Notes under the pieces: model-generated
What the model was told of the DNA's origin: nothing
Databases searched by the model: none
Seen by the model: only the letters and a program-made list of their open reading frames with translations
DNA from: a virus
Virus record (IMG/VR): IMGVR_UViG_3300032308_000833
Location: 16,763-80,762 of that record
Length of the DNA stretch: 64,000 bases
Direction: 5' to 3' (one strand)
Translations under genes and position numbers: made by a program
Part shown: positions 1 through 64,000 of the stretch, piece after piece
Numbering within the stretch: the stretch's first letter is position 1
Layout: every line of letters begins with the position of its first letter

Positions 1-276
1 GATTTAACATTAAGTGATATTGGTCAAAGTATAACTTTTGATTCTACAGGAGCATGGACAGTAACTATTCCACCTAATTCAAGTATTGCTTTTCCAATAG
101 GATCAGAAATAGATGTTTTTAGAATGAATACTGGATCTGTTACATTTGTTCCAGGTGCAGGAGTTACTTTAAATAGTAAAAATACAAATAGATCAATTGC
201 AGCAAGGTATTCAGGTGCATCCTTGTTTAAGTTTGATACAAACACTTGGCTTCTAGTCGGCGACTTGATCGCATAA
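1..276 (+). CDS. 3' end of a fibre-like virion protein (partial, not in ORF track)
   Basis: Frame +1 is open from base 1 to TAA 274-276: DLTLSDIGQSITFDSTGAWTVTIPPNSSIAFPIGSEIDVFRMNTGSVTFVPGAGVTLNS...ASLFKFDTNTWLLVGDLIA. It is clearly homologous to the C-terminus of 6414..8138. Confidence 0.85.
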   Translation, partial: DLTLSDIGQSITFDSTGAWTVTIPPNSSIAFPIGSEIDVFRMNTGSVTFVPGAGVTLNSKNTNRSIAARYSGASLFKFDTNTWLLVGDLIA

Positions 277-285
277 GGGTTTGCT

Positions 286-1200
286 ATGGCATTATTTGGA
301 AAACTAGTTAAATACGTTGTAAAAAAAGGAATGAAACTGGTTCCTAATTTTATTGGAAGAACAAGTGCACAGGCTCAAGCAGATGTTGTATCTGAAGGTT
401 TTGTTTTAGGTAATGTAACCACTACAGTTTCTGGAGAACCTGCTGAATTAGCAAACGATGGATTAATTGTTGAGCAGATTCCCGCAGTTACAACACCAGC
501 AGATTATGAAGCACCTGTTGATTTAACCGTAAGACAGTTTAGTTTTACACCATTTGGTGTATTTGGATTTTCACCTTTCAACGTTTTTGGATTCTCACCT
601 TTCAACGTTTTTGGATTCTCACCTTTTAACGTTTTTGGATTTTCACCTTTTAGAGTTTTTGGATTCTCACCAACTACCTATACTTTTTCATTTTCACCAG
701 TTCCATATTGCATAGATGAAAATACACCAGTATTAACTAAAGAAGGATATAAGTTAGCAAAAGATATAGTTGTTAACGATATATTAATGACTAAAACTTT
801 TGATGGTTTACCTATAACAAACCATGAAGGTTTAAAATCTTGGTCAGATACTATAGATAAAGAATATCATTCTGTAGAGTCTAAAGTAACAAACATTAAA
901 AAAACTAATGTTCTTGAAACTATTATAATTAATGATGATAAGTATAAAAGATTTTCTACTCAAGAAGATATTTTAATAATAAGAGAAGAAAAATTAATGT
1001 TTTGTGTTGCTTCTGAATTAAAAATAAATGATCAAATAGTAAAAAGTCCAACCGAAATGATTGGCGATCAAATAGCATGTATTGTTTATAAAATAGAAAC
1101 AGTAAAAGAAGATAGAAATGTTTATGATTTTATGAGAGAACCATTTGGCTTGATTGTGGCAGATTCTTTACTTGTATATAATGCTTATCCAGTAGATTAA
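286..1200 (+). CDS. PASTA-like domain + (FGFSPFxV)n repeat + Hint (intein-like) domain protein
   Basis: VPNFIGRTSAQAQADVVSEGFVLG...IVEQIPAVTT...VDLTV resembles PASTA; 8-aa repeats follow; the Hint domain starts at C142 (CIDENTPVLT) and ends VYDF...IVADSLLVYN. Confidence 0.8.
   Translation: MALFGKLVKYVVKKGMKLVPNFIGRTSAQAQADVVSEGFVLGNVTTTVSGEPAELANDGLIVEQIPAVTTPADYEAPVDLTVRQFSFTPFGVFGFSPFNVFGFSPFNVFGFSPFNVFGFSPFRVFGFSPTTYTFSFSPVPYCIDENTPVLTKEGYKLAKDIVVNDILMTKTFDGLPITNHEGLKSWSDTIDKEYHSVESKVTNIKKTNVLETIIINDDKYKRFSTQEDILIIREEKLMFCVASELKINDQIVKSPTEMIGDQIACIVYKIETVKEDRNVYDFMREPFGLIVADSLLVYNAYPVD
538..672 (+). repeat. 24-nt in-frame tandem repeat encoding FGFSPFxV (5 units + partial)
   Basis: FSFTPFGV FGFSPFNV FGFSPFNV FGFSPFNV FGFSPFRV FGFSP, read directly from the sequence. 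Confidence 0.97.
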
Positions 1201-1772
1201 TCTTTAGGAAACTGATACATAAATTCTCTAGTTTTTGAAGTTATGCCTTTCCAAGGTCCCCAATTTTTTCCACCATCACTCATTATGTAAGCAACTTGAC
1301 AGTTAATTGATGGGTTTAAAAGTTGACTTGTGTAGTCTAGATTATATTTTTCTTTTCTATCAGCATTAAGGTCACCAATCATATTTATTTGAAATAATCC
1401 GTATGATTTGTCTCCAGTGCTTTTATTGCCATTAAAGGCCAATGAGTTCCCCATTGATTCTTTTTTAACAATAGCCCAAGCCTCTACCAAATGCTTATTT
1501 TCAAAACCACAAGCAGATAACAAAGTTTTTAGTTCAATGTCAGTAAGTTGTCCTTTATCCTGATATTCAGCAAGGGTTCTTACATTATCTCTAGATGGTT
1601 TATTTAAATGATCTGGTCTAGAAAGCAAAAAAACCGCCTCAGCGGTAAATGTTGCATATTTATCGTTTTTCAGGTTAGTTTCAACACCTTGAGCATTAGA
1701 AATGTTCAAAAATACTGAAGATAATCCAAGACTTGCGAGCAATCCTATTAAAAATTTTTTATCTTTTTTCAT
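1197..1772 (-). CDS. Secreted lytic transglycosylase / lysozyme-fold muralytic enzyme
   Basis: Signal peptide (MKKDKKFLIGLLASLGLSSVFLNISNAQG); AWAIVKKES catalytic Glu motif; SYGLFQIN; NP..N..VAY; W.PW; AGGAG RBS. Confidence 0.8.
   Translation of the reverse strand: MKKDKKFLIGLLASLGLSSVFLNISNAQGVETNLKNDKYATFTAEAVFLLSRPDHLNKPSRDNVRTLAEYQDKGQLTDIELKTLLSACGFENKHLVEAWAIVKKESMGNSLAFNGNKSTGDKSYGLFQINMIGDLNADRKEKYNLDYTSQLLNPSINCQVAYIMSDGGKNWGPWKGITSKTREFMYQFPKD
1627..1646 (-). terminator. Intrinsic terminator-like hairpin inside the transglycosylase CDS
   Basis: Minus strand reads ACCGC-TGAG-GCGGT followed by TTTTTT. Confidence 0.55.
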
Positions 1773-1791
1773 AGTTCTCTCCTAAGAAAAC

Positions 1792-1814
1792 ATGACACCC
1801 TTGGTAGGTGTCAT
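1792..1814 (-). promoter_or_regulatory. Perfect 8-bp hairpin in the 5' leader of the transglycosylase gene
   Basis: ATGACACC-N7-GGTGTCAT just downstream of the minus-strand promoter TGTTATACT (1821-1829). Confidence 0.5.
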
Positions 1815-1895
1815 ATATCAAGTATAACATCTATTTGCCAGTAAGTCAAATCAAAAATGTCATATTAGTAAGATAATACAAAAAATTATTTAAAA

Positions 1896-1904
1896 TGATA
1901 TAAT
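1896..1904 (+). promoter_or_regulatory. Extended -10 promoter, leaderless transcript
   Basis: TGATATAAT, then 6 nt, then ATG 1911; no SD. Confidence 0.7.
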
Positions 1905-1910
1905 ATTTGT

Positions 1911-2438
1911 ATGGCAACAGGTCAATCAAGCATATATAATTTACCATACCCACAAGTTGATGATAGTGTAAACGTACATGGAGATATTGCTTCTTTAGCA
2001 ACTTCATTAGATAATACACTTGCTGGACTTGGCTTATCTTACATGAAATTAGATGTAATTAATACATCTGGAGCATCAATTGCAGCAGGATCTCCTGTAT
2101 TTATTAATGGTCATAATTCAGGACAAGATTTAACAACAGTAGGAAAAGCAATTCCTACAACAACATCACCAATATTAGGATTATTAAAATCTACAACAGC
2201 AAATAATGCACAAGGAATATGTGTAGTCTCTGGAGTATTACCAGATGTTAATACATCTGAATTTGTTGCAGGTGATATTTTGTATGTAAAGACTGGTGGA
2301 GGTTTAACAAATGTTAGACCATCAGGTGGTGCAGGTGCAGTAGCAGTTTGTGCCTATGCAGATGCATCTAATGGAGTTCTTGTAGTTACCGCCAAAGGTA
2401 ACGGTACTTGGGGAGCATTAAAGAACGGTCTTTCATAA
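1911..2438 (+). CDS. Putative virion/minor structural protein
   Basis: N-terminal LPYP...D..SLA..LD motif typical of fibre N-termini; Gly-rich beta region (GDILYV..GGGLT). Confidence 0.5.
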   Translation: MATGQSSIYNLPYPQVDDSVNVHGDIASLATSLDNTLAGLGLSYMKLDVINTSGASIAAGSPVFINGHNSGQDLTTVGKAIPTTTSPILGLLKSTTANNAQGICVVSGVLPDVNTSEFVAGDILYVKTGGGLTNVRPSGGAGAVAVCAYADASNGVLVVTAKGNGTWGALKNGLS

Positions 2439-2453
2439 TTATTTATCCAAACA

Positions 2454-2462
2454 TGATATAAT
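2454..2462 (+). promoter_or_regulatory. Extended -10 promoter, leaderless transcript
   Basis: TGATATAAT, then 6 nt, then ATG 2469. Confidence 0.7.
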
Positions 2463-2468
2463 TACAAT

Positions 2469-2876
2469 ATGGCCATTCTCAGAAACTCATCTCAAGATTT
2501 ATACAACGTAGGTGCTAAACCCCCAACCGTTAAATGGACAGTAGTTCGTGGTGACACCTCAGCATTTAAAGTTTACGTAACAGACGACGCCCAAGCCCCT
2601 TTAGTTATAGCAGATTGGGATATTGCTATGAAAATTAAAAGACCAAACCTTGCTAAAGATCTTGGAGTAATAACGGATAATGCAAATACAATTATGCTTT
2701 TGACTCCTGCAGCAGATGCAGATGATTTGGCTGGAGAATTTACAGTTAGACTTGCAGCAGAAGAATCACACAATCTTCAAACAGGAGATATTTTTGATAT
2801 CGAGTTATCTACAGCAGAAATTGTTTGGACAGTTGCACAAGGTAGCATGATTATACTTGAAGATGTAACTGACTAA
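2469..2876 (+). CDS. Putative virion structural protein (BppU-N-like beta sandwich)
   Basis: VRGDT..F.V ... FDIEL ... QG...I..DVT pattern common in phage baseplate/fibre adaptors. Confidence 0.45.
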   Translation: MAILRNSSQDLYNVGAKPPTVKWTVVRGDTSAFKVYVTDDAQAPLVIADWDIAMKIKRPNLAKDLGVITDNANTIMLLTPAADADDLAGEFTVRLAAEESHNLQTGDIFDIELSTAEIVWTVAQGSMIILEDVTD

Positions 2877-3100
2877 TGGCAACAGCAATTATTGTTGATG
2901 ACAATAAACAAAAATTAAGACGTATTGAAACCTCAGACTATTACCAAACCAAAATATCCTACAAGCCTAGCACGGTAGAGATAAATTACACTTTACCTTT
3001 TAGAATAAGATTTACAACAATAACAGTAGAAGGGTATGGTCCAGGTAATGTGCCCCCAATTCCTTTACAGGTTATTGGCTATAGCAACTATATACTGTAG
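2876..3100 (+). CDS. Hypothetical protein
   Basis: TAATG stop/start overlap with the upstream gene; 74 aa. Confidence 0.6.
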   Translation: MATAIIVDDNKQKLRRIETSDYYQTKISYKPSTVEINYTLPFRIRFTTITVEGYGPGNVPPIPLQVIGYSNYIL

Positions 3101-3109
3101 AATAGACAT

Positions 3110-3841
3110 ATGGCTAAAAAAGAAAAACCTAGCATATTTATAGCAACCCCAATGTACGGTGGGGTTTGTCATGGATACTTTATGAAAAGTGTCATGGGAC
3201 TAGTAATGAAACTAACCTACAAAGGATACAAAGTAACCTTTAACGACTTGTACAACGAATCTTTAATTAACAGGGCCAGAAACACCCTTACAGAACTATT
3301 CTTAAGATCTGATGCTGACTACCTATTGTTTATTGATGGTGACGAAGGTTTTAACGCTGATGGTGTTATAGATATGATTGATACAGATTTAGATATTATT
3401 GGGGCTGCCGTGCCAATGAAAGCAATTAACTGGGCTAACGTAGAAAAAGCAGCAGAATTAAAAAAACCTGATTTGAAAAGGTTTGGATCTTATGTAAACA
3501 TAAACTTTGTTGATAGACAAGACTTACATAAGGTAGCAGATAATCCTAAAAAACCATTAGAGGTAAAAAACATAGGAACTGGTTTGCTGTTAATTAAACG
3601 TAATGTTTTTGAAACAATGAAAGAGCATGTTGGAAAATATAAAAGTGATCAACTAGATTTGGGTGGTATTAAAAAAGGTGAATACATTTATGATTTTTGG
3701 AAAACACAGGTAGACCCAGAAGAAGAAAGACTTTTGTCAGAAGACTACTATTTCTGTACACTATGGCGTAAACTTGGCGGTTCTGTGTATGTAGCACCAC
3801 ACGTTAAGGTAGTGCACGTAGGAACCTATATATTTGTTTAA
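3110..3841 (+). CDS. GT-A fold glycosyltransferase-like protein
   Basis: IFIATPMYGG; ESLINRARN; LLFIDGD (DxD); GTGLLLIKR; LSEDYYFC; HVG. Confidence 0.8.
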   Translation: MAKKEKPSIFIATPMYGGVCHGYFMKSVMGLVMKLTYKGYKVTFNDLYNESLINRARNTLTELFLRSDADYLLFIDGDEGFNADGVIDMIDTDLDIIGAAVPMKAINWANVEKAAELKKPDLKRFGSYVNINFVDRQDLHKVADNPKKPLEVKNIGTGLLLIKRNVFETMKEHVGKYKSDQLDLGGIKKGEYIYDFWKTQVDPEEERLLSEDYYFCTLWRKLGGSVYVAPHVKVVHVGTYIFV

Positions 3842-3865
3842 TTTGCAATAATTTTGTAAAAATAA

Positions 3866-3874
3866 TGTTATAAT
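3866..3874 (+). promoter_or_regulatory. Extended -10 promoter, leaderless transcript
   Basis: TGTTATAAT, then 6 nt, then ATG 3881. Confidence 0.7.
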
Positions 3875-3880
3875 TTAGTC

Positions 3881-4327
3881 ATGGCACAACAATCAATTGC
3901 AACAGTAAAATCACGTTATGAGACTGGCGATAGGCCATCTCAGCAAGACTATGAAGATTTAATTGACACTACCGCGTCCCAAGCAACACGCCTTGGTACT
4001 TTTGGTAATAACGACAATACAATATCAGAAATTCAGAACACAACAATTGTTGATAGTTTTGATGCAACAGAGTGGAGAATGGTTAAGTACCTTGTTTCAA
4101 TTTCTAAAACAACACAAGGCGATAACTATTTTTACGCAACAGAATTGACCATATTGGTTGACGGAGCAGATGTTTCCGTAAGCGAATATGGGACAATAGA
4201 CAACGATGGGAATATTGGAACCATAAGCGTCTCAAGGGCTGGAAATACAGTGGCTTTAACAATCACTCCAGACTCAGTAATAAAGCCAGTCACCTTGCGT
4301 TACGCACGCATGGGACTTAAGGCATAA
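3881..4327 (+). CDS. Virion fibre-associated protein
   Basis: ETGDRPSQQDYEDLID N-terminal motif; C-terminal domain similar to the C-terminus of 4339..5871. Confidence 0.55.
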   Translation: MAQQSIATVKSRYETGDRPSQQDYEDLIDTTASQATRLGTFGNNDNTISEIQNTTIVDSFDATEWRMVKYLVSISKTTQGDNYFYATELTILVDGADVSVSEYGTIDNDGNIGTISVSRAGNTVALTITPDSVIKPVTLRYARMGLKA

Positions 4328-4338
4328 GGAGATAAAAT

Positions 4339-5871
4339 ATGGCAACATTAAATAAAAATTTCAAGATTAAACATGGTTTAATCGTTGAAGGAACAACAGG
4401 TACAATTAACAACTTTGACATCTTGACAAAAAGTACAGATGATCAAAACTACATTATAGACCTGGTTGGTGGAGACGCTTCATCAAACGCAGTAGCAAAC
4501 ACACTAGTACTTCGTGATGCAAATGCAAACTTTTTTGCAAATACAATCACAGCAGACTTAGTTGGAGATGTAACTGGTCAAGTATCAGACATTTCTAATC
4601 ATGATTCTGATGATGTAGCAGAAGGTACAACAAACCTTTACTTTACAAACGAAAGAGCAGCAAATGCAACTGCAGCATCCTATGATGCTATAGGCTCAGC
4701 AGCAAATGCTTATTCAAATGCAACTGCTTACACAGATCTAGAAGTAGGTAATGCAATTGCTGACTTAGAAGACTATGCAGATTTTGCAGCAGGAAATGCT
4801 TTAGCAAATGCAAACTCATACACTGACAACGCAATTTCTAATGCAGTCTCTGACTTAGAAGAATACACTGACTTTGCAGTAGGCAATGCAGTGGCTGACT
4901 TAGAAGATTATGCAGACTTTGCAGTAGGTAATGCAATTGCTGATTTAACAAACAATGCACCAGCGTTATTAGATACACTTAACGAAATCGCAGAAGCAAT
5001 TGGTGACGATGCAAACTTTGTTGGAACAATAACCAACTTAGTTGCAGAAAAACAAAATGCTTTGATTGCAGGAACTGACATTGATATCGTAGGAAACACA
5101 ATTTCCTTTACTGGAAGTTACGATCCTTCAGGCTCAGCAGCAAATGCTTATTCAAATGCAACTGCTTACACAGATCTAGAAATAGGAAATGCATATGCAG
5201 ATTTAGAACTGTTTGCTAACAACGCAGCAGGTAATGCTTTAGCAAATGCAAATTCTTACACAGATAATGCAATTGGTCTTTTGTCAACAACTGATATCGA
5301 AGAAGGAACAAACGAATACTTCACAGATACAAGGGCTAAAGAGTCAGCAGCAAGTTTGTTAACAATGGCAACTCTAACAAATATCTCAATCACAGGTAAC
5401 TCTGAAGGATTGGTAATTACAGCAGAAAATGGTGTAGGAGACTCTAACACAGATGCGTTGGCTGAAGGTTCAACAAACCTTTATTTCACAGATCAACGTG
5501 CAGTAGATGCTCTTGAAGCAATAATACCTAATTTCACTGAAATTGATATTAACACAGTTGCTAGACAAGTTGCAGCAACAGTAAATGCTCCAACAGCAAG
5601 CACAGTTACAGCAATTGACTGGGCATTAGCAGAATATCGCTCAGCCGAATTCTTGGTAAAAGTTGCTTACGGTGCACACACAGAAGTTTCAAAAGTTATC
5701 TTAACTCTTGATACTTCAAACAACATCGCAATCACAGAATACGCAATTGTAGGAACAAATGGATCCGCATCCACAATTTCTGCAGACGTAAACGGAACAG
5801 ATGTAAGACTAAGAGTAGCAACAGCCAATAACAACTCAGATGTAACAGTTGTTGGAACATTGTTAGTCTAG
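4339..5871 (+). CDS. Tail fibre-like protein with coiled-coil repeats
   Basis: Repeated EG.TN.YFT..RA, A.AYTD and GNAIADLEDYADFA motifs; APALLDTLNEIAEAIGDD fibre motif. Confidence 0.7.
   Translation: MATLNKNFKIKHGLIVEGTTGTINNFDILTKSTDDQNYIIDLVGGDASSNAVANTLVLRDANANFFANTITADLVGDVTGQVSDISNHDSDDVAEGTTNLYFTNERAANATAASYDAIGSAANAYSNATAYTDLEVGNAIADLEDYADFAAGNALANANSYTDNAISNAVSDLEEYTDFAVGNAVADLEDYADFAVGNAIADLTNNAPALLDTLNEIAEAIGDDANFVGTITNLVAEKQNALIAGTDIDIVGNTISFTGSYDPSGSAANAYSNATAYTDLEIGNAYADLELFANNAAGNALANANSYTDNAIGLLSTTDIEEGTNEYFTDTRAKESAASLLTMATLTNISITGNSEGLVITAENGVGDSNTDALAEGSTNLYFTDQRAVDALEAIIPNFTEIDINTVARQVAATVNAPTASTVTAIDWALAEYRSAEFLVKVAYGAHTEVSKVILTLDTSNNIAITEYAIVGTNGSASTISADVNGTDVRLRVATANNNSDVTVVGTLLV
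4692..5181 (+). repeat. Identical 52-nt direct repeat (4692-4743 and 5130-5181) in the fibre gene
   Basis: aggctcagcagcaaatgcttattcaaatgcaactgcttacacagatctagaa occurs twice (GSAANAYSNATAYTDLE). Confidence 0.85.
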
Positions 5872-5892
5872 TAAAAAATTAGGGGGCAGTAA

Positions 5893-6345
5893 ATGACCAC
5901 AAATCTAAAAGATTTTAAAGTCAAGAATGGATTAGTCGTAACTAACGGCGGTTCATTTGGAAACGCGGTAGCAGTAGGAGAACCTACATTAGGAACTCAC
6001 GCTACTACTAAAGATTACGTAGATTCTGTAACTGGTACACCAGTATCAAATACTGCCCCTCTTTCCCCAGACAATGGGGATATGTGGTTTGATACCACGG
6101 TAGAAAGATTAAAAGTTTATTATGAAACTGATTGGTTTACAATTGCAACAAGCAATGATGTACAAAATATTCCAGATCACATTCATGATACAGCAATTGA
6201 TGGTAACGGAAGAATTGTTACAGTATTCTGGGATGCTGAACAATATGACGATCCACAAATTTCTACATTAAGTGGTGGAACACCGTTTTCAAATTCATGG
6301 GCAGCAGTATTTGATGGTGGAAATCCAGACAGTGAATTTAATTAA
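5893..6345 (+). CDS. Short fibre-like virion protein
   Basis: DFKVKNGL start shared with 4339 (NFKIKHGL); HATTKDYVD; GDMWFDT...LKVYY; FDGG.P. Confidence 0.6.
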   Translation: MTTNLKDFKVKNGLVVTNGGSFGNAVAVGEPTLGTHATTKDYVDSVTGTPVSNTAPLSPDNGDMWFDTTVERLKVYYETDWFTIATSNDVQNIPDHIHDTAIDGNGRIVTVFWDAEQYDDPQISTLSGGTPFSNSWAAVFDGGNPDSEFN

Positions 6346-6413
6346 AACATTTTAAAAAACTGTTATAATTAAAACAAAATCAAAAGTAGGTAAGACCTAC
6401 ACAGGGAGATAAA

Positions 6414-8138
6414 ATGGCAACAAGGATGCTACAACGTAGAGGAACTGCTACACAGTGGGCTAATGCTAACCCTACTCTGGGTTCTGGAGAAATTGGTTTT
6501 GAAACCGACACAGGACAATTTAAAATAGGTGACAACTCTACAGCATGGGATGATTTGCCATACTTTAAAAATATAGAAGATTTAGGCGGAAACCTAGACG
6601 ATTACATTTTATTAGAACAAAAAGGTGCAGCAAACGGTGTTGCCACATTAGATGGAAGCAATTTAATCCCTGTAGCACAAATTCCAAATACTATTGCTAG
6701 AATTACAGATGTAGGAAACGCAATTTCTAACGCTATATCAGATTTAACAAATAACGCACCAGCAATACTAGATACCCTTGCAGAACTAGCAAATGCCATC
6801 AATGATGATGGAGATTTTTTCTTAACTATTTCAAACAGCATTAATAACAGTTTAGATGCCGCTAATGAATACACAGATAATAACATAAATACTTTAGCAA
6901 ACAACGTTGCAGAAGAAGCAGAATTATTAGCAAACACTGTTGCAAATAATCTTTCTTGTGCTGTTGCAAGTTTACAAGAAGAAATTGGAAATGCTGTAAC
7001 TGAATCAGAAGCATATACCGATAACGTTGCTGCTCATACTTTAGGAAATGCACAATTTTATACTGATGGTGAAGTAGACATACTTGCAAACTCTATAACA
7101 GATGCACTATCAAATGCACATTCATACACAGATACTGAAGTTTCAGATCATAACCTAGAAACATTAAATGTGCACGGTATATCAAATACAGCAGTACTTG
7201 TAACATTAACAGATTTGAGCAATCACGAAACTGACACATCAAACGTACATGGTATCACAAATACACTAGCAATAGTGTTTACAGATGATGCAAGACTTTC
7301 TGATGCAAGAACACCACTTGCTAACTCTGTTACAAATAACTCTATATCAGGAACAATTGATCAAAATAAGATCACAAACCTTGCAACAACACTAGGAAAT
7401 CTAGCATCCCTTTCAGGTGCAGCGTTTACTGGTAACGTTTCAACAACTGGTAATTTGACAGTAGACGGAGATTTCACTGTAAGTGGATCTAATGTTCTTG
7501 TATCTGCAACACAAATTCAAATAGAGGACACCTTACTACAACTTGGTCACACAAATGCTAACAACGTAGCAGATCTAGGTTTAGTAGTTTCTTATAACGA
7601 TGGAACACAAAAACATGCTGGTATCGTCAAAGACGTTACAGATAGCAAATGGAAATTGTTTGATGGTGTTACATCAGAACCTGGAACAACAGTTAACTTT
7701 GGACAAGGTTCACTAGATGTTTTGGCACTTTTGACACTTGAGGCAAACTCAATCACTGCAACATCAGATATCACTGCAAACGGAATCGTATTTGCAGACG
7801 GTACACAAAGATTAGAAGGTGTACCTTCACGGACACCTATTATTCAAAAGACAGCAAGTTATACTTTGTCAGCATTGACTGAAAGAGATGATTTAATAGA
7901 AATGGATAGCGTTAGTGCAACAACGCTGACTATTCCTCTTAACTCAGCAGTAGCGTTTCCAGTTGGAACATCTATTGATATTCTTCAAACAAATACTGGT
8001 CAAGTAACAATCGCAGGAGACGCAGGAGTAACAGTAAATGCTACACCAGGTCTTAAACTACGCACACGGTGGTCATCTTGCACTCTATTTAAGAGAGCAA
8101 CTAACACCTGGGTTGTATACGGCGACTTAACTGCATAA
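6414..8138 (+). CDS. Tail fibre protein with Mtd/hyaluronidase-like N-terminus and conserved C-terminal GDLxA domain
   Basis: QRRGTATQW...NPTL..GEIGFETDT..FKIGD; GAANGVATLD; VHGI repeats; C-terminus FPVGT.IDILQ...TNTWVVYGDLTA. Confidence 0.75.
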   Translation: MATRMLQRRGTATQWANANPTLGSGEIGFETDTGQFKIGDNSTAWDDLPYFKNIEDLGGNLDDYILLEQKGAANGVATLDGSNLIPVAQIPNTIARITDVGNAISNAISDLTNNAPAILDTLAELANAINDDGDFFLTISNSINNSLDAANEYTDNNINTLANNVAEEAELLANTVANNLSCAVASLQEEIGNAVTESEAYTDNVAAHTLGNAQFYTDGEVDILANSITDALSNAHSYTDTEVSDHNLETLNVHGISNTAVLVTLTDLSNHETDTSNVHGITNTLAIVFTDDARLSDARTPLANSVTNNSISGTIDQNKITNLATTLGNLASLSGAAFTGNVSTTGNLTVDGDFTVSGSNVLVSATQIQIEDTLLQLGHTNANNVADLGLVVSYNDGTQKHAGIVKDVTDSKWKLFDGVTSEPGTTVNFGQGSLDVLALLTLEANSITATSDITANGIVFADGTQRLEGVPSRTPIIQKTASYTLSALTERDDLIEMDSVSATTLTIPLNSAVAFPVGTSIDILQTNTGQVTIAGDAGVTVNATPGLKLRTRWSSCTLFKRATNTWVVYGDLTA

Positions 8139-8142
8139 CATT

Positions 8143-8151
8143 TGATATAAT
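8143..8151 (+). promoter_or_regulatory. Extended -10 promoter for the FN3-repeat-Hint gene
   Basis: TGATATAAT followed by AAGGAG SD and ATG 8169. Confidence 0.65.
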
Positions 8152-8168
8152 AAGACTAAGGAGATAAC

Positions 8169-9428
8169 ATGGCAATAGGTAAAAAAGTAGGTAAGAAGTC
8201 TCAAGGTTCTAATGACTTTTTAATGCCAAGAACACCAACTATTGGAACAGCAACAAACGTTGGAACAGGGCGGGCATTTAACAATGGTGCAGCCACAGTA
8301 ACATTTACAGCAGATCCTACCTATGCAGCAGACTCTTTTACAGTTACATCAACTCCAGGTAGTTTTACAGCAACAGGAGCATCATCTCCAATTACAGTTA
8401 CAGGATTACAATCAGATACAGCATATACTTTTAAAGTAACTGCAACAAATACTTATGGAACATCAGGTGAATCAGAGGCATCTAACTCTATTACAGCAAC
8501 AACTGTTCCAGCAACACCAGCAGCACCAAGTGCATCATCACCAAACGCTGATCAAGATGTAATTTCATGGGATGCACCAGCAAACGGTGGATCAGTAATA
8601 ACAAATTATCATTGGCAATCAAATGAAGCCCCTGTTAAAGAAGGAGATACTGCGACTACGCTTAACGCAACAGTAGGGCAAGAAGCAGGAACAGCACAAC
8701 GGTACAAAGTTTATGCAACTAACGCTAACGGAAACTCAGAATATTCTGCATTATCAGCAGAAGTAACAACAACATTTTCTTTCGTACCTTTTGGTGTGTT
8801 TGGTTTTTCACCATTTACAGTGTTTGGTTTCTCTCCGTTTAACGTGTTTGGTTTTTCACCATTTAACGTATTTGGTTTCTCACCATTCAGAGTATTTGGT
8901 TTCTCACCATTCAGAGTATTTGGTTTCTCACCAACTACATACTGTGTAGATGAAGATGCACCAGTTCTTACAACAACTGGAAATAAAAAAGCAAAAGACA
9001 TTGAACTTGGAGATAAATTAATTGTAAAAGCATTTGAAGAAATGCCAGTTGGAGATCTTTACAAAATTGTACTTTGGAAAAAAAGAGGTAACCTAACAAA
9101 TTACAGAGAATTAGAAGCAGATGTAACTAAGATTACACCAACAGTAGTACATGAAACAGTTATGTTTAATAATGATCCAAACATGAGATTTTCATTACTA
9201 GAAGATATGTTTGTAATTAAAAATGGTTTATATGGTTTTGTTTCTTCAAGAGAAATTAAACCTGGAGATAAAATTATTACAAGAGATTCTTTGATGGTAG
9301 TAGAAACTGTTGAAATAGTTAACGAAACAAGAACTGTTTACAGTTTTGGAAGATATCCAATTGGATTAGTTATAGCAGGAGGATTAGTTCATTATAACGA
9401 CTACTCTCCTTCAGAAATACCAGATTAA
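8169..9428 (+). CDS. FN3x2 + (FGFSPFxV)n repeat + Hint (intein-like) domain protein
   Basis: SPITVTGLQSDTAYTFKVTATN..G and ISWDAPANGGS.ITNY...YKVYATNANG are FN3 signatures; Hint runs from C259 (CVDEDAPVLT) to TVYSF...IAGGLVHYN. Confidence 0.85.
   Translation: MAIGKKVGKKSQGSNDFLMPRTPTIGTATNVGTGRAFNNGAATVTFTADPTYAADSFTVTSTPGSFTATGASSPITVTGLQSDTAYTFKVTATNTYGTSGESEASNSITATTVPATPAAPSASSPNADQDVISWDAPANGGSVITNYHWQSNEAPVKEGDTATTLNATVGQEAGTAQRYKVYATNANGNSEYSALSAEVTTTFSFVPFGVFGFSPFTVFGFSPFNVFGFSPFNVFGFSPFRVFGFSPFRVFGFSPTTYCVDEDAPVLTTTGNKKAKDIELGDKLIVKAFEEMPVGDLYKIVLWKKRGNLTNYRELEADVTKITPTVVHETVMFNNDPNMRFSLLEDMFVIKNGLYGFVSSREIKPGDKIITRDSLMVVETVEIVNETRTVYSFGRYPIGLVIAGGLVHYNDYSPSEIPD
8775..8933 (+). repeat. 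24-nt in-frame tandem repeat encoding FGFSPFxV (6 units + partial)
   Basis: FSFVPFGV FGFSPFTV FGFSPFNV FGFSPFNV FGFSPFRV FGFSPFRV FGFSP. Confidence 0.97.
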
Positions 9429-9480: not shown

Positions 9481-10146
9481 ATGAGACAAGGGCCACCACC
9501 AGAATTACGTGGTATTCAGCAATCAATTAAACCACATAAGTTTTTTGAAAGACATCTAAACAATGATTTAGATTTATTAGCAAATGAATTAACTGACAGA
9601 TATCAAAGTATTGAAAAAGTAGAACTAGATGGTATTACTCCAGTTAACAGTAAAGATTATTGGCAAGAATCTGGTAGCGTTTCTACAGTTAAATGGAGAG
9701 AGTATAACGTATTTCAGTTTCACATTGATGGTATATATGAGTTATATAAAAATATTCAAGACATGACTAAAGAGGCTTGTGAATATTACGAGATAGATTT
9801 TGAAAAACAAAGATTTATGTTGCAAGGATGGTTTAATATTAATCATAAGAAAAAAGGAAAACTAGACTGGCATGATCATGGTCATACTGGTGCTCCAAAT
9901 AATTTTCATGGATATTACTGTGTAAAAGCAGAACCATCATCAACTTATTATAGAGTTTTTGGTAAAGATATGGAAAATAAAAATATTGATAATCGTGCTA
10001 TTTTTTCAGAAATGGGACATCCTCATGCACAAGGTGATTGGGATTGGGAAGGACCAAGAATTACAGTTGCATATGATGTTGTAACTTTGGAAGAGTTAAA
10101 ACATGCTGGTAAAGATCATGAGCAACACTGGATACCTTTGATATGA
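9481..10146 (+). CDS. Putative 2OG-Fe(II) oxygenase (HxH type)
   Basis: QGWFNI...WHDH...FHGYYCV...HPH...RITVAYD double-stranded beta-helix pattern. Confidence 0.7.
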   Translation: MRQGPPPELRGIQQSIKPHKFFERHLNNDLDLLANELTDRYQSIEKVELDGITPVNSKDYWQESGSVSTVKWREYNVFQFHIDGIYELYKNIQDMTKEACEYYEIDFEKQRFMLQGWFNINHKKKGKLDWHDHGHTGAPNNFHGYYCVKAEPSSTYYRVFGKDMENKNIDNRAIFSEMGHPHAQGDWDWEGPRITVAYDVVTLEELKHAGKDHEQHWIPLI

Positions 10147-10772
10147 TAAAGGAAAAACCAACACATAAATTTTTTGAAAGATATGTTGACAATGACCTAA
10201 CGCAACTTTCAAGATATTTGTTAAAACTTGAAAAAGATTTATTTGAAGGGGTCTATCCAAAAGTTTCTAAAGAGTTTGCTAATAATATTGGTGGTGTTCA
10301 TAATTTAGGAACAAAGTTTAATATTTTTCAGTGCTATAGTCCACAAATTCACAAATTGTTTTCTGCACTTAGAGAATTAACTATAGATGCTTGTGAGTAT
10401 TACGATATTGATTATAAAAAACAATCTTACATGGTTCAGGGTTGGTTTAACACAGACGGAATAGCAGAACCACCAGTTAATGAATCAACTCATTATCACG
10501 ATCATCTAGGTGGTACTGGTGCACCAAACTTTCATGGTTATTACTGTGTAGATGCTGAGCCATCTTTTACTTATTATAAAATTGGTGGTCAAGATAAAGA
10601 ATCAATTCAAAATATTAACAAGAACAATAGAGCCATATTGTCAGAAACTGGTCACCCACATGGAATAGGTCCTTGGCCTTTTGATAAACCAAGAATTACT
10701 ATTGCTTATGATATATCTCCAGTTACTCATATGAGTGGAAGTGAATTACAACATTGGGTTCCTTTACCTTAA
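10143..10772 (+). CDS. Putative 2OG-Fe(II) oxygenase (HxH type), paralog of 9481..10146
   Basis: HKFFER..NDL, QGWFN, YHDH, FHGYYCV, GHPH, PRITIAYD and QHW.PL are all shared with the upstream gene. Confidence 0.7.
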   Translation: MIKEKPTHKFFERYVDNDLTQLSRYLLKLEKDLFEGVYPKVSKEFANNIGGVHNLGTKFNIFQCYSPQIHKLFSALRELTIDACEYYDIDYKKQSYMVQGWFNTDGIAEPPVNESTHYHDHLGGTGAPNFHGYYCVDAEPSFTYYKIGGQDKESIQNINKNNRAILSETGHPHGIGPWPFDKPRITIAYDISPVTHMSGSELQHWVPLP

Positions 10773-13020: not shown

Positions 13021-13551
13021 ATGGAAGATTTTAAGTCTCAAATCAAGTATGTTAAGGGTTTTATGAACCCTCAAGAAGCAGGTTTGGTAACGGAATATGC
13101 AAAAAAACATCAAGAACTATTTTCTAATTATGGAAATAGTGAACAAGAGTTTACGGTTCATACCTATCATGAAATAAATGATCTAGATCCTGCTATTCTT
13201 AATATAATTCAAAATGTTGCATTGAAAGTTTATGATTTTGTTTTAAATAACTATGATTCTGAATTTGAAAATTTTATTGATGAAAAAACACATATTGCAA
13301 AATTTGTTGAAGGAAGAGGAATGCATGAACATTTTGATGCTTCTAGGCCAAAAGATATAGCAACTTTAGTTTATTTAAATGATGAATATCAAGGTGGAGA
13401 CATATACTTTCCAAAATATGAAATGTCTTTTAAGCCAGAACCTGGAGATCTATTATGTTTTCCAGACAATACAAACTTTATTCACGGTGTTAAGCCAATA
13501 GTTAAGGGAACAAGGTTTACATTACCTCGTTGGTTTACACGCATTGTGTGA
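13021..13551 (+). CDS. 2OG-Fe(II) oxygenase, prolyl-4-hydroxylase-like
   Basis: HFD...LVYLNDEYQGG.I.F...KP.PG.L..FP...HGV..I..GTR: HxD, H and R all present. Confidence 0.88.
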   Translation: MEDFKSQIKYVKGFMNPQEAGLVTEYAKKHQELFSNYGNSEQEFTVHTYHEINDLDPAILNIIQNVALKVYDFVLNNYDSEFENFIDEKTHIAKFVEGRGMHEHFDASRPKDIATLVYLNDEYQGGDIYFPKYEMSFKPEPGDLLCFPDNTNFIHGVKPIVKGTRFTLPRWFTRIV

Positions 13552-26708: not shown

Positions 26709-29700
26709 ATGGCTGATGTAGAGTCCAATATAAAAATTGGTATTGACACTGGTGAAGCGTTAACGCAATTAAAAGCGTTACAACGCCAGATATCAGCCTT
26801 TCACACCTCAATGGCAAAAACAGGTGCTGCAGGTGTTGCAGTATCTAATAACCTTTCTCAAAACCTAGCAAATCAAATAAACGCTGGCGGCAAATTCTAT
26901 GCCGAAATGAAAAAGATTAGAACAACAACTGACGCATTTAATGCAGCACTAGAAAAAAATCAACTCTCAATGAGAGAGTATTTTAGGTATACTGGTGCTT
27001 CTACAAGAACTTTTGGAAAGTTATTTAAATCTGAATTTGATACTATTAATAAAGTTGCAAGAGAAAATGTAAAAACATTACAAACTCAATATATTAAAAT
27101 GGGTAGAGATGCAAGTGGTGCTCTTAGAGCAATGTCAGTTCGTCCATTAACTTTGGATATGAATGATTATGGTACTAAGGTGGCGATGGCTGCTCAAAGA
27201 CAGGCATTGTTAAATCAACTACTTAGACAGGGTTCTACAAACTTATTAAATTTTGGTAAGAATACACAATGGGCTGGTCGTCAACTTATGGTTGGTTTTA
27301 CAATTCCATTATTGTCTTTTGGCACAATTGCATCAAAAACATTTATGGATTTAGAAGAGCAAGCAATTAGATTTAGACGTGTTTATGGTGATCTTTTTAC
27401 AACAAATACAGAAACAACAAAAGCATTAAAAGATGTTCAAGCACTTGCTAATGAGTTTACTAAATATGGTGTAGCAGTAGCAGATACCATGAAGATGGCT
27501 GCAGATGTTGCAGCAACAGGTAAAATGGGAACAGACTTGCTAGAACAAATAAGTCAAGCAAACAAATTGGCTGTACTTGGTGGAATTGATCAACAAAAAT
27601 CTCTTGACACTATTATTTCTTTAACGTCTGCATTTGGAAAAGAAACTAAAGCATTATCAGAAGATATTAACTTCCTAAACGCAGTAGAAAACCAAACTAT
27701 TCTTAACATTGATGATTTAACAACTGCAATTCCTAAAGCAGCACCAGTAATTAAACAACTTGGTGGAGATGTTCAAGACTTAGCATTCTTTATGACTGCG
27801 ATGCGTGAAGGTGGTATTCAGGCTGGAGAAGGTGCTAACGCATTAAAGTCTGGTCTTGCATCTATGATTAACCCAACTGATAAGGCAGCAAAAGCACTTG
27901 GTGCAATGGGTATAAATATTAAAGGTATTGTTGAAGCAAACCAAGGTGATGTAAGAAATCTTGTTATTGGTATGGCTAAAGCATTTGATCAACTAGATCC
28001 ATTAAATCGTGCTAGAGCAATTGAACAGTTATTTGGTAAGTTTCAGTTTGCTCGTATTTCTACATTGTTTCAAAATGTTATTAAAGAGGGTAGTCAGGCT
28101 CAAACAGTCGCTAAATTAACACAAGCAACTACAGAAGAGTTGGCTATTTTATCTGAAAGAGAATTAAAAAAGGTAGAAGAGTCTCCTTTATACAAATTTA
28201 AAAAAGAAGTTCAAGATCTTAAAACAGCAATTGCTCCTGTTGGTGCAGAATTCTTAAAAGCCTTAACTCCAATTGTTAAATTTTTTGGTAACGTATTTGA
28301 AAACTTTAATAATTTTGGAGACGGTACAAAGAAAGTAATGGTCTTATTAACAGCAGTGTTAGCAGGTATAGGTCCATTAGCATTGATGTCATTTGGTTTG
28401 TTGGCTAACGGTATTGCAAATATAATTAAAGGCTTTACTGCAGTAAAATCATTATTTAATAAAACTGGAAGTTCTACCCAACATTTGGGCGAGCAAACCA
28501 ATTATTTAACACAAGAACAATTAAGAGCAGCATCTGTTGCCGCATCATTAGATCAAGCACATATGAGATTAACACAAAGGTTTACATCTGAAGCAGCGGC
28601 AGTTAGAAATCTATCAACAGCATATCAACAAGCAATAGCAACACAAAGCATGTTTGGTTTGGGTGCTGTTAGAGGTAAAGGTGGTACTGCTCAACAACCA
28701 AAGGGTTATGCAAAAGGTGTGGTAAGTGTTCCAGGAAGTGGCACTGGAGATAAAGTTCCAGCAATGCTTTCTCCAGGAGAAGCAATTATTCCTGCAGCAA
28801 ATGCAAAAGAAAATCCAGCATTAGTTAGTGCTTTGGTTAGTGGAAAGATAAAAGGTTATGAAGATGGACTAGACCCAGTTGGAAAAGGATACAAAAATGC
28901 TACCTTGTTTATGCCTCATCCTATGAATAAAGCACTAGATTCAGGTCAGGGTGTTTTAACTAAAGATTTGGTTAGATATTTTAAAGATGCAGGTAGTGCT
29001 GCAGCAGCACCATTGATAACAGTAATGGCTAAATCAATGGGTCTAGAAATAAACAATCCTAAAGTTAGAAGTGAATTTTCTGAAATTGGTAAAAAATTAA
29101 TTACAAGTGCAACAACTGCATTAGAAAAATCTGGTATGCAGTTTGTTAAAGATGAAGATTTAGAAAGAATAGTTGTTCCAGCAATGAAAAAAACTGCACA
29201 AGGACTTAATGTTGCAGGTCAAGAAGTTGCTACTGCTTTTAATAAGTCAGTTACAGAAATTCAAACTGTTGGAAGAATGGGTGATCCAGGAGGTACGGCA
29301 GGAGAAAAAACTAAAACCTCATATTCAGGACGAAGTGCTCTTTCACCTTTGTCATATATACGACGAAGAACAGAAGCACAAAATCTTGCAATTGAAGAAA
29401 ACCCAAATATGTTTAGAAGAGTAAAAAGGTTTAGTAAAAGTTTTGGTAAAGAACGTAATCAATTTCAAACATTTGATCCAAAAACACAAGCATGGGAGAC
29501 AGGTTCGGCATCACATATTACTAAGTCTCTTACTGCTAGTGCTTCAAAAATATCAAAAATGGTTGAACCTTATCTTGGAAATGTTTTAGGAAAAATTGAA
29601 AAAGGATTTCTTACTGGGCTAAGAAAAACACTAAAAATTAATTCACCAGCAAAGGAACCACAAATTGCTGGAACTCAAAGTGGAAAAGGTTATCTAATAG

Positions 29701-33686: not shown

Positions 33687-34330
33687 TGGCAACTTTAAAT
33701 TACCTTGCTGGTAGAAAAAAATACGGTAGACCCCAAGCACTCTTGTTTGCAGATACCCCTGGAACCCTTATACAGAGTGCAAATGGAATGACTCACGTTC
33801 CAGATGGTTTTGAAATAAACGCAGACATAGATATTTCTGAACTTCAAAATAATTCATCTAGATTTATGATACTTTCAGATCACAACCGTGGTCCAATAGA
33901 TGTTAAAAATAATAGACTTGAGCAAAAAGAAAGAACTATTAATGGTAAAATGAGATCATTTTATATTGCAGATAAAAACACTTTTTCTGTAAGTTGGCAA
34001 AACTTACCATCTAGATCTTTTTCTAATTTATCAAATTTTAATACTAGTACTGGAAAAGAAGAGGTTGGTTTAGATAAATATACGGTAGATGGTGGAGCAG
34101 GAGGAAATGAGTTATTGGATTGGTACTTAAATCACAAAGGTTCTTTTTATCTATTTATTGCGTACGATAACTATATTAAATTAAAAGATCAAAATAATAC
34201 ATACAATAGACTTAGTGAGTATCAAGAAGTTGTAGAAGTATTATTTTCAGATTTTTCATACAGTGTAAATAAAAGAGGATATAGCAAACATGATTTGTGG
34301 GATATAAGTTTATCTTTGGAAGAAGTATAA
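33686..34330 (+). CDS. Distal tail protein, putative
   Basis: Directly after the TMP; ERTINGKMR...W..LP; WDISLSLEEV end. Confidence 0.6.
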   Translation: MATLNYLAGRKKYGRPQALLFADTPGTLIQSANGMTHVPDGFEINADIDISELQNNSSRFMILSDHNRGPIDVKNNRLEQKERTINGKMRSFYIADKNTFSVSWQNLPSRSFSNLSNFNTSTGKEEVGLDKYTVDGGAGGNELLDWYLNHKGSFYLFIAYDNYIKLKDQNNTYNRLSEYQEVVEVLFSDFSYSVNKRGYSKHDLWDISLSLEEV

Positions 34331-63816: not shown

Positions 63817-64000
63817 TGAAAAAAATGTTTATTGTTTTATCTGTTTTATTTTCAGTACTAGCAGTTCCAGCAAATGCAGTTGAGAGTCCAACACCAGTTG
63901 TTGTTCCAACACCAGTTGTTACACCAACTCCAACACCTATAGTTGAGAGTCCAACACCAGTTGTTGTTCCAACACCAGTTGTTACACCAACTCCAACACC
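63816..64000 (+). CDS. Secreted Pro/Thr/Val-rich protein (5' part, truncated by window)
   Basis: MKKMFIVLSVLFSVLAVPANA signal peptide, then VESPTPVVVPTPVVTPTPTPI repeated with a 63-nt period (63879, 63942). Confidence 0.75.
   Translation, partial: MKKMFIVLSVLFSVLAVPANAVESPTPVVVPTPVVTPTPTPIVESPTPVVVPTPVVTPTPT

Follow-up and report, generated by a model that had tools for sequence, protein, structure and literature searches.

A tail-fibre-associated Phe/Pro array with a terminal Hint domain, a candidate self-removing cap, in uncultured phages

Results

Organization of the locus

The question raised by two genes of an uncultured lake phage is what a Cys-initiated domain does at the extreme C terminus of a protein, directly behind a run of Phe/Pro repeats. 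The window analyzed here (64,000 nucleotides, positions 16,763 to 80,762 of IMG/VR record IMGVR_UViG_3300032308_000833) contains two such genes, ORF A and ORF B, which are also the only array and Hint copies in the whole 80.7-kb virus record. ORF A (286..1200, 304 amino acids) is arranged as a PASTA domain, a 57-residue FGFSPFxV array and a domain starting at Cys-142 (base 709). ORF B (8169..9428, 419 amino acids) has two FN3 domains followed by a 56-residue array and a domain of the same kind starting at Cys-259 (base 8943). The ORFs, coordinates and motifs are those given in the original prediction, which described two proteins with unrelated N termini and a common array and Cys-initiated domain. 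The features of the locus are as follows.

1..276, plus strand: 3' end of a tail-fibre gene, with a C-terminal domain like that of 6414..8138 (BLASTP 48% identity, 81 aa, E = 6e-22, to residues 495-574)
286..537, plus strand: ORF A N-terminal PASTA domain, residues 1-84 (Pfam PASTA 25.5 bits; AF2 pLDDT ~88)
538..708, plus strand: ORF A Phe/Pro octapeptide array, residues 85-141, last residue Tyr(-1) (sequence, repeats, AF2)
709..1200, plus strand: ORF A C-terminal Hint domain (Cys-142 is Cys1; block B S-x-x-E; end V-Y-N, then 5 residues)
1197..1772, minus strand: lysozyme-like (SLT_3) protein with a hydrophobic N terminus, convergent with ORF A (Pfam SLT_3 2.7e-13)
3110..3841, plus strand: glycosyltransferase-like gene within the fibre module (phrog_1574 1.1e-39; weak Anp1/glycosyltransferase matches)
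4339..6345, plus strand: two fibre-like genes, 4339..5871 and 5893..6345 (PHROG tail-fibre families)
6414..8138, plus strand: tail fibre with an Mtd_N N terminus, its C-terminal domain directly upstream of ORF B (Mtd_N 8.6e-12; many PHROG tail-fibre families)
8169..8774, plus strand: ORF B N-terminal part, two FN3 domains (Pfam fn3 4.2e-8, two stretches)
8775..8942, plus strand: ORF B Phe/Pro octapeptide array, residues 203-258, last residue Tyr(-1) (sequence, repeats)
8943..9428, plus strand: ORF B C-terminal Hint domain (Cys-259 is Cys1; block B S-x-x-E; end H-Y-N, then 9 residues)
9481..10772, plus strand: paralogous gene pair (9481..10146; 10143..10772), predicted fold that of a 2OG-Fe(II) oxygenase (DSBH) (AF2, Foldseek)
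13021..13551, plus strand: P4H-type 2OG-Fe(II) oxygenase (Pfam 2OG-FeII_Oxy_3, PF13640, 1.4e-10)

ORF A and ORF B each lie directly downstream of a fibre gene, and the C-terminal domains of the two fibre genes are homologous. A natural fusion, P0016, found in at least 4 contigs, joins such a fibre C-terminal domain to the array and Hint, and the C-terminal domain of 6414..8138 is homologous to residues 127-226 of P0016 (E = 1e-16). Gene order and the fusion together support placing both proteins in the tail-fibre apparatus. As originally suggested, they may be tip or decoration proteins. In most loci the PASTA-type gene is accompanied by the SLT_3 lysozyme-like gene. As host markers, WhiB gave a sub-threshold match only and no tRNAs were found in the phage, and Actinobacteria and Flavobacterium are both candidate hosts.

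N-terminal domains and arrays

The N terminus of ORF A, previously described as PASTA-like, is by its profile matches a true PASTA domain. The isolated domain scores above the Pfam cut-off of 23.2 bits, PF03793 is matched by 11 of 11 orthologues, and the best 12 of 13 PDB matches of the profile belong to PASTA kinases of the PknB/PrkC/StkP type (best E = 1.9e-9), whereas the thirteenth, FAP143, lacks significance (E = 0.56). Residues 2-13 form a short amphipathic helix. The pair of FN3 domains proposed for ORF B is recovered by Pfam.

The two proteins have unrelated N termini and can be aligned only from the array onward, with 47% identity over the 231 amino acids of array and Hint (E = 1e-65) and 38% for the Hint domains alone. 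The array runs from FSF[TV]PFGV through FGFSPF[NTR]V (four copies in ORF A, five in ORF B) to FGFSPTTY, with 9 additional residues ahead of the Cys in ORF A, and Tandem Repeats Finder places 24-nt tandem arrays at 562..671 and 8799..8933. The array peptide is near-identical in both proteins, and the codons differ by fixed synonymous changes (3.57 synonymous versus 1.27 non-synonymous per 8 codons, paralogue against paralogue), which rules out recent gene conversion as the source of the likeness. At the codon level the array peptide is shown to be under selection as a functional element. The arrays are uncharged, and that of ORF A has AF2 pLDDT values below 40 and no secondary structure in a monomer model, which says nothing about array behavior once assembled. 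A triple β-helix like that of T4 gp5C (octapeptide V-x-G-x5) was considered for the array and rejected, as the units of relatives vary from 4 to 8 residues with no fixed period and the AF2 model is structureless.

Identity and catalytic positions of the Hint domain

The family profile compared with the PDB matches only inteins and bacterial intein-like (BIL) domains at E~2e-7, the best being the Clostridium thermocellum BIL 2lwy (E = 1.8e-7), and PF14890 is matched by 18 of 29 family members. Single-sequence Pfam and PDB searches with the Hint domain returned nothing better than E~0.1. The AF2 model of the ORF A C-terminal domain has a pLDDT of 93-96 and gives 57 Foldseek PDB matches at E<=1e-3, those listed all being inteins, BIL or Hedgehog domains with TMt up to 0.76. 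Its top matches are inteins, BIL2 (6y75/6tmm), BIL (2lwy, TMt 0.76) and Hedgehog (1at0). From profile and predicted fold, the C-terminal domains of ORF A and ORF B are genuine Hint domains, in agreement with the original assignment.

Cys1 is kept in 90/90 family members, the window clade included, and the block-B Ser/Thr in 125 of 126, being Ser in the window proteins. At the block-B His position the family varies (H 37, E 51, Q 36), with Glu in both window proteins. The domain ends in His-Asn in 82/121 members and in Tyr-Asn in both window proteins, and several orthologues within the window clade have exchanged the terminal Asn for Ser, His or Gly. With the block-B and penultimate His missing and the terminal Asn variable, activity in this clade could be weak or lost. 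Residue -1 is Tyr in both window proteins and aromatic in 70% of Glu-type members; a bulky residue at -1 can make up for a missing block-B His during the N-S shift (PMC6333167). The enrichment of aromatic -1 residues is missing in Gln-type members, an observation that counts against a self-removing cap.

The Hint domain forms the extreme C terminus throughout the family, with a tail of 0-19 residues. As predicted, the terminal Asn is followed by 5 residues in ORF A (AYPVD, +1 Ala) and 9 in ORF B (DYSPSEIPD, +1 Asp), and neither tail has a Lys. Among HN-type relatives, +1 is C/S/T in only 5 of 81, and Lys occupies +1/+2 in 76 of 81, a bias that a throw-away domain leaves unexplained and that hints at aminolysis chemistry. 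The C-flanks are conserved by clade, as Lys at +1/+2, as a 14-residue tail beginning KKGAFQG- or, in the window clade, as [AG]-[YC]-P; in 16 members a single Lys is the whole tail after Asn. The terminal position, the short tails and the rarity of C/S/T at +1 exclude canonical intein splicing, there being no real C-extein.

Distribution of the array and Hint

A search of 1.8 billion representatives found 94 relatives. Cys1 lies almost always directly behind an uncharged Phe/Pro array (median length 45 aa) built from units such as YSFTP, FGFTP, FFxPPG, FFPP, IIATP and PPVIQV, which supports a linkage of repeat to Cys1-Hint conserved across a large family. The predicted linkage is family-wide but not obligatory, since arrays also exist without Hint, the protein either stopping bare at the array or shortly behind it (L043, L084) or carrying a Cys-rich tail instead (L037-L042) that has no Pfam match. 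These Hint-less forms look as expected of a product from which the Hint has been processed away; an equally good reading of them is that the Hint serves some other purpose and can be dispensed with.

In three independent lineages both partner proteins of a genome have the same array type. Hint trees group by phage lineage and not by N-terminal type, and an AU test rejects (p = 3e-6) a history in which one ancient duplication was followed by vertical inheritance of the PASTA-type and the FN3-type cassette. The tree comparison shows that the cassette has been exchanged between the two genes, which bears out the idea of a portable cassette grafted onto different binding domains. No similar DNA or protein was found in cultured phages, save a Gly-run and Hint protein in phage NCTB, and no paper describing the family was found. 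The family is large, apparently undescribed and known from uncultured-virus sequences only.

Neighboring oxygenases

Neither 9481..10146 nor 10143..10772 has a Pfam match. The model of 9481..10146 (AF2 pLDDT 82, pTM 0.82) has Foldseek matches to 3bvc and 2rg4 (TM ~0.6), SnoN, PHD2 and P4H, and the protein is a 2OG-Fe(II) oxygenase by predicted fold only. In at least 4 lineages, one of them Hint-less, a paralogous DSBH pair lies downstream of the FN3-type gene, and P4H-type oxygenases occur near the cassette genes in 1-6 copies in most lineages. They do not always flank the cassette, none being present within the fetched flanks of L086 (YSFTP) or L091/L103 (FFPP). From this gene neighborhood the DSBH pair and the P4H-type oxygenase are possibly linked to the cassette. 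For the array and Hint genes, originally labeled a candidate new system, the term protein architecture, with enzymes that may be linked to it, is more fitting than that of a demonstrated system.

Discussion

The reading we favor, with a probability of roughly 0.55, is that ORF A and ORF B are fibre partners carrying a self-removing Hint cap over a sticky array at the fibre tip. Each would partner the tail fibre encoded just upstream and would consist of a head for cell-surface binding (PASTA in ORF A, two FN3 in ORF B), a ~55-residue Phe/Pro middle part that is uncharged and disordered on its own, and a C-terminal Hint of the bacterial-intein-like kind. On folding, Cys1 would attack the carbonyl of Tyr(-1) in an N-S acyl shift, and resolution of the thioester by water or a cellular thiol would let the Hint depart, leaving the aromatic array as the C terminus of the mature protein. 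The cap would hold the sticky array soluble or unassembled until mounting on the fibre. The conserved residues and modeled fold indicate that the Hint domain probably cleaves itself off both proteins, and type A BILs yield mostly cleavage products (PMC4031507). Among the uses listed in the original prediction, release of a cap or chaperone fits best; covalent coupling is less likely, and nothing supports the liberation of repeat peptides.

Capture of the Cys1 thioester by an amine or hydroxyl, joining the array to a virion-protein lysine, a cell-wall amine near the PASTA/FN3 ligand or a small molecule, is unlikely but has real precedents. The Hint fold and Cys1 chemistry are common to Hedgehog cholesterylation and Tetrahymena BIL2 isopeptide formation, BIL2 and Hedgehog are among the top structural matches, and BIL2 forms Lys isopeptide bonds with no need of ATP (PMC8616854). 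The retained Lys at +1/+2 of HN-type members also points this way, as do the reactive Cys-rich tails that occupy the same place in Hint-less variants and fit a shared role in covalent anchoring. Against it, an adduct-recognition region is absent from the few residues after the Hint, the tails of ORF A and ORF B offer no Lys, a thioester is unlikely to last in a thiol-rich cytoplasm until host contact, and the array ends bare in L043 and L084. A more specific form of this idea, in which the thioester is a one-shot coupler of the array C terminus to a fibre or virion lysine or to an amine of peptidoglycan or lipid II bound by PASTA/FN3, and so a self-installing anchor or covalent harpoon on the virus particle, is improbable; the Lys after His-Asn and the Cys-rich tails would then be alternative solutions to one covalent-anchoring task.

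The clade-wise conserved C-flanks and the frequent His-Asn end would suit splicing in the style of type A BILs, a known mechanism (PMC4031507) in which Asn cyclization frees the C-flank and its amino group attacks the thioester, giving the array plus a 1-19-residue tail. This is doubtful, as the window clade has no penultimate His and an unreliable Asn, cleavage predominates even among type A BILs, and in 16 members the flank would be a lone Lys. It is similarly improbable that the window-clade domain is non-processing and retained as a structural or binding end-domain. The changes of block-B His to Glu and of His-Asn to Tyr-Asn, with the variable Asn, would agree with this, but Cys1 is invariant, the block-B Ser is retained, the domain boundary falls almost always at the array end, and loss of the His can, as documented, be offset by a bulky -1 residue (PMC6333167). 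That the domain is a selfish intein-like element of no use to the phage is highly implausible. Mobility is common among Hint domains, and this cassette has passed from one gene to the other, but homing endonuclease and real C-extein are both absent, and the domain is always terminal, behind one kind of low-complexity array, and has persisted in two genes of each genome over deep lineages.

Comparison with known systems places the cap reading in context. Type A BILs are defined by Cys1, a C-terminal His-Asn and no +1 nucleophile (PMC4031507); the window proteins have the Cys1 and lack the +1 nucleophile but have Tyr-Asn for His-Asn and Glu for the block-B His. The C. thermocellum BIL shares with the phage family its fold, the best profile match and an occurrence in variable extracellular-type proteins, and most family members do end in His-Asn, whereas the phage-encoded domain is strictly C-terminal with a short flank and a preceding Phe/Pro array. 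In Hedgehog/Hog, as proposed for the phage proteins, a C-terminal Hint frees an N-terminal cargo through the Cys1 thioester and the new cargo C terminus is functional, but this is in eukaryotes and the phage domain has no sterol-recognition region behind it. The BIL2 of Tetrahymena BUBL, a close structural match whose amine-resolved thioester is the precedent for ligation, has ubiquitin-like domains on both sides, and nothing substantial follows the phage Hint. Pretoxin-HINT (PF07591), known from polymorphic toxins, is a self-cleaving Hint class of secreted or surface proteins with weak PT-HINT matches in 3/29 family members, but it frees a toxin domain located C-terminal to the Hint. Peptidase_S74, the self-cleaving intramolecular chaperone at the C terminus of tailspikes and fibres, is a functional analogue, not a homologue, if the phage Hint is indeed a self-removing C-terminal module. 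It has an unrelated fold with a Ser-Lys dyad and follows a triple β-helix, whereas the phage Hint follows a disordered array, and ORF A and ORF B have no Pfam or PDB match to Peptidase_S74.

Hint domains are known as selfish inteins, Hedgehog lipidation modules and toxin-releasing or ubiquitin-dispensing BILs. In the present family the Hint is terminal and follows a low-complexity array of extreme Phe/Pro content, on proteins that are associated with the fibre and predicted to bind the cell wall. Prolyl-hydroxylase-like orphan enzymes are common in aquatic phages, and the arrays are the most obvious candidate substrates for them. Should ligation prove true, phage appendages would have here their first device for covalent coupling. 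As a self-removing cap, the Hint would offer a compact C-terminal tag from nature that cleaves itself with non-canonical catalytic residues (Glu/Gln for the block-B His), and it would stand beside the Peptidase_S74 chaperone of tailspikes as a second answer, evolved independently, to the same problem.

Two Proteins with a Common C-terminal Cassette

The two proteins of the original prediction are both present in the window with the predicted make-up, each ending in a cassette composed of a Phe/Pro array and a C-terminal Hint (Hedgehog/intein-fold) domain. The source record, an IMG/VR virus of 80.7 kb with a completeness estimate of 69%, contains no third cassette copy. The genes considered here are as follows.

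286..1200, ORF A, 304 amino acids, PASTA domain, array and Hint domain
6414..8138, fibre ORF, Mtd_N domain and many tail-fibre PHROG matches
8169..9428, ORF B, 419 amino acids, two FN3 domains, array and Hint domain
9481..10146, first of a paralogous pair, DSBH oxygenase fold in the structure model
10143..10772, second of the pair, DSBH oxygenase fold in the structure model
13021..13551, P4H-type 2OG-Fe(II) oxygenase by Pfam

ORF A and ORF B can be aligned only from the array on (47% identity, 231 amino acids, E = 1e-65), in agreement with the predicted unrelated N termini and common C-terminal part. The array in both runs from FSF[TV]PFGV through FGFSPF[NTR]V (four times in ORF A, five in ORF B) to FGFSPTTY, with 24-nucleotide tandem arrays at 562..671 and 8799..8933 (Tandem Repeats Finder), and Cys1, the first Hint residue, follows directly in ORF B and after 9 extra residues in ORF A. 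The N terminus of ORF A, described beforehand as PASTA-like, proves to be PASTA, as its match is slightly under the Pfam cut-off at full length but scores 25.5 bits against a cut-off of 23.2 when the domain is taken alone, and PF03793 is matched by 11/11 orthologous N termini from related phages. A profile of these N termini has PASTA domains of the PknB/PrkC/StkP kinases as its top 12 of 13 PDB matches (best E = 1.9e-9), the last being FAP143 (E = 0.56, not significant). The two FN3 domains expected in ORF B were likewise found.

The gene at 1197-1772 (-) encodes a lysozyme-like protein (SLT_3) whose N terminus is hydrophobic; the stop of this gene overlaps that of ORF A, and in most lineages it lies beside the PASTA-type gene. 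Two very large ORFs lie downstream of the head genes (26709-33686, 2325 amino acids; 34297-38589, 1430 amino acids), and ORFs near the 3' edge of the window contain tandem repeats rich in Pro and Thr (60322-61587 and 63878-64000; PTPTPT... linkers), which have no relation to the Phe/Pro arrays.

The C-terminal Domain and Its Family

Single-sequence searches of the C-terminal domain give only traces of a relationship (Hint_2, E = 0.11; the bacterial intein-like (BIL) structure 2lwy, E = 0.1). Searching 1.84 billion representatives exhaustively yielded 94 relatives, and a profile of 29 family sequences (alignment A1) matches only Hint proteins significantly in the PDB (2lwy, 1.8e-7; Pho RadA intein, 2.1e-7; MJ0781 (KlbA) intein, 3.2e-7), with 18/29 members matching Pfam Intein_splicing. 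When ORF A is modelled at full length with AF2, pLDDT is ~88 for PASTA and 93-96 for the C-terminal domain, with array residues 90-138 below 40 and devoid of secondary structure. Foldseek matches comprise inteins, the BIL domains of Tetrahymena (BIL2) and C. thermocellum (TMt 0.76), and the autoprocessing domain of Hedgehog. Profile (E ~ 2e-7) and modelled fold together show the C-terminal domain of ORF A and ORF B to be a Hint domain, as predicted.

Among 126 non-redundant family members used for residue counts, Cys1 is present in 90/90 whose domain start is intact, and 125/126 have the Ser/Thr of block B (T/S-x-x-H), with the block-B His position occupied by Glu (51), His (37) or Gln (36). 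About two-thirds of the family end in His-Asn; the clade of the window combines block-B Glu with a terminal Tyr-Asn, the Asn becoming Ser, His or Gly in some orthologues. The Hint domain is the extreme C terminus without exception, and in the 81 His-Asn members, counted family-wide (P0011-P0094, loci L034-L105), the residue after the Asn (+1) is C/S/T in 5, whereas Lys occurs at +1 or +2 in 76; in 16 of them HNK forms the very C terminus. The flank in the Tyr-Asn clade is [A/G/D]-[Y/C]-[P/S] in place of Lys. Because they are always terminal and so seldom carry a +1 C/S/T, the family domains are classified by sequence as BIL-like and not as inteins; most resemble type A BILs as defined in PMC4031507, with the clade of the window a derived form.

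One subfamily keeps a 14-residue tail starting KKGAFQG. A divergent PASTA-type subfamily at loci L092-L102 (e.g. L092:9953-11032) has a polar NPGF/NEPAF array. Judged by eye, it shows S-x-x-H in block B, His-Asp at the end where His-Asn would be expected, and Ser at position 1, although the HMM aligns the first residues ambiguously. The sole member in the GenBank phage collection searched is a 1304-amino acid protein of phage NCTB (L108, LT598654.1 96419-100333), which is encoded beside a tail-fibre gene and bears no annotation other than 'large intein domain protein'. A Gly run near its C terminus is followed by Cys, Hint, His-Asn and 7 residues.

The Array as the Constant Element

An aromatic/Pro-rich tract directly precedes Cys1 in nearly all full-length relatives, and 28/28 unique Hint proteins with an intact N terminus in the fetched loci bear an array, confirming the predicted linkage of repeat and Hint. 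The units vary by lineage (FGFSPFxV, FGFSPTPPFxV, FGFSPVV, FGFTP, YSFTP, FFxPPG, FFPP[YF]FP, IIATP, PPVIQV), with a median array of 45 residues composed of F 32%, P 26%, S 9%, G 8% and 2% charged residues. Gly runs replace the array in a few distant members (P0048, P0092, phage NCTB). Arrays also occur without Hint, in PASTA-type proteins (L037-L041) and an FN3x3 protein (L042) ending in a 19-35-residue Cys-rich tail, in L043, where the array itself is the C terminus, and in L084, a 684-amino acid fibre-like protein that stops six residues past a PPYFPYF array. Since these proteins keep the array, it is the constant element and Hint is one among several possible ends. The Cys-rich tails (e.g. 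L038:5755-6303, L042:5095-6315) contain 6-9 cysteines and match nothing in Pfam. Contig 3300027769_000023 combines an FN3-type protein that retains Hint with a PASTA-type protein bearing such a tail.

Within each window gene the codons are uniform among units, with Gly GGA in all ORF A units versus GGT in all ORF B units, and the two arrays further contrast in Val (GTT versus GTR) and Pro (CCT versus CCA). The units of the two genes differ by 3.57 synonymous versus 1.27 non-synonymous differences per 8 codons, an excess indicating that the common array peptide is kept by selection, while the adjoining Hint domains drifted (38% identity, domain alone). The same excess rules out recent conversion as the cause of the like arrays.

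In three independent lineages the arrays of both partner proteins of one contig are of one type: FGFSPFxV in the window and five sister contigs, FGFSPTPPFxV in L036/L041, and YSFTP in L086. In the maximum-likelihood tree of 82 Hint domains the clusters follow phage lineage and array type, and several clades contain PASTA-type and FN3-type Hints as sisters. Constraining the PASTA-type Hints together, a group set by N-terminal homology but after the tree was seen, lowers the log-likelihood by 240 units (AU p = 3e-6). Tree and AU rejection thus indicate that the cassette is repeatedly swapped or homogenised between the two genes; with cargo elsewhere in the family including FN3, PASTA, Listeria-Bacteroides repeat and whole fibre domains, the suggestion of a portable cassette on different binding domains is upheld.

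Genomic Setting and Host

ORF A and ORF B each lie directly downstream of a fibre gene, the last ~100 residues of the two fibre proteins being homologous (E = 6e-22). In P0016, a 916-amino acid family representative, this fibre domain (E = 1e-16) continues in one reading frame into further domains, array and Hint, a fusion found full-length in at least 4 contigs. The domain order of the fusion is the gene order of the window, which argues that the N termini of ORF A and ORF B dock on the fibre end with the array presented distally.

The 4.1 kb that follow ORF B include three 2OG-Fe(II)-oxygenase-like genes (9481-10772, 13021-13551), and a ribonucleotide-reductase-like gene separates the tandem pair, neither member of which has a Pfam match, from the third. 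Oxygenase-like genes occur in the fetched flanks of 6/8 lineages in up to six copies, with none in those of L086 and L091/L103, and the 9481-type pair is also downstream of the Hint-less L042 gene. This association is a lead and not a finding, as it was counted without a background control among phages sharing much synteny. P0008 (283 amino acids), a recombinant or else a chimera created in assembly, consists of the N-terminal half of a 9481-type oxygenase-like protein followed by an FN3 end, array and Hint, which implies that the two genes are neighbours in another phage.

An actinobacterial host is favoured but not established. The phage portal shares 47% identity with the portals of Streptomyces phages of ~130 kb (127/202 matches are Streptomyces phages), and PASTA domains are a Gram-positive feature. 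Against such a host count the GC content of ~34%, a WhiB match that is only sub-threshold, and the placing of JBIPOM010000254.1 (L109/L110), a 74-kb contig, in a Flavobacterium MAG from Lake Mendota. Both cassette genes are borne by this contig, which is probably that of a sister phage and was binned there either through compositional mis-binning or as a true host signal.

Predicted Processing

In the Ssp DnaB intein bulky residues at -1, directly before Cys1, make up for an absent block-B His (PMC6333167), so its absence in the clade of the window is not disqualifying for activity. Tyr is at -1 in both window proteins, and aromatic residues occupy it in 70% of Glu-type, 43% of His-type and 28% of Gln-type members, counts that are not phylogenetically independent.

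The Hint thioester may be resolved by ligation, as in BIL2 (PMC8616854), a reading to which the conserved Lys at +1 or +2 (76/81 His-Asn members) also points, or BIL-A splicing of the short C-flank may occur instead. Self-cleavage with loss of Hint is the simplest reading, given that Cys1 is invariant, block-B Ser is retained, no C-extein is present and array-terminal forms occur naturally. Full-text literature searches returned no description of Hint-capped phage fibre proteins; tailspike self-cleaving chaperones resemble such a cap in function only. By self-cleavage, Hint would cut at its own N-terminal junction and depart, having served as a cap masking a 55-residue uncharged aromatic tail until assembly.
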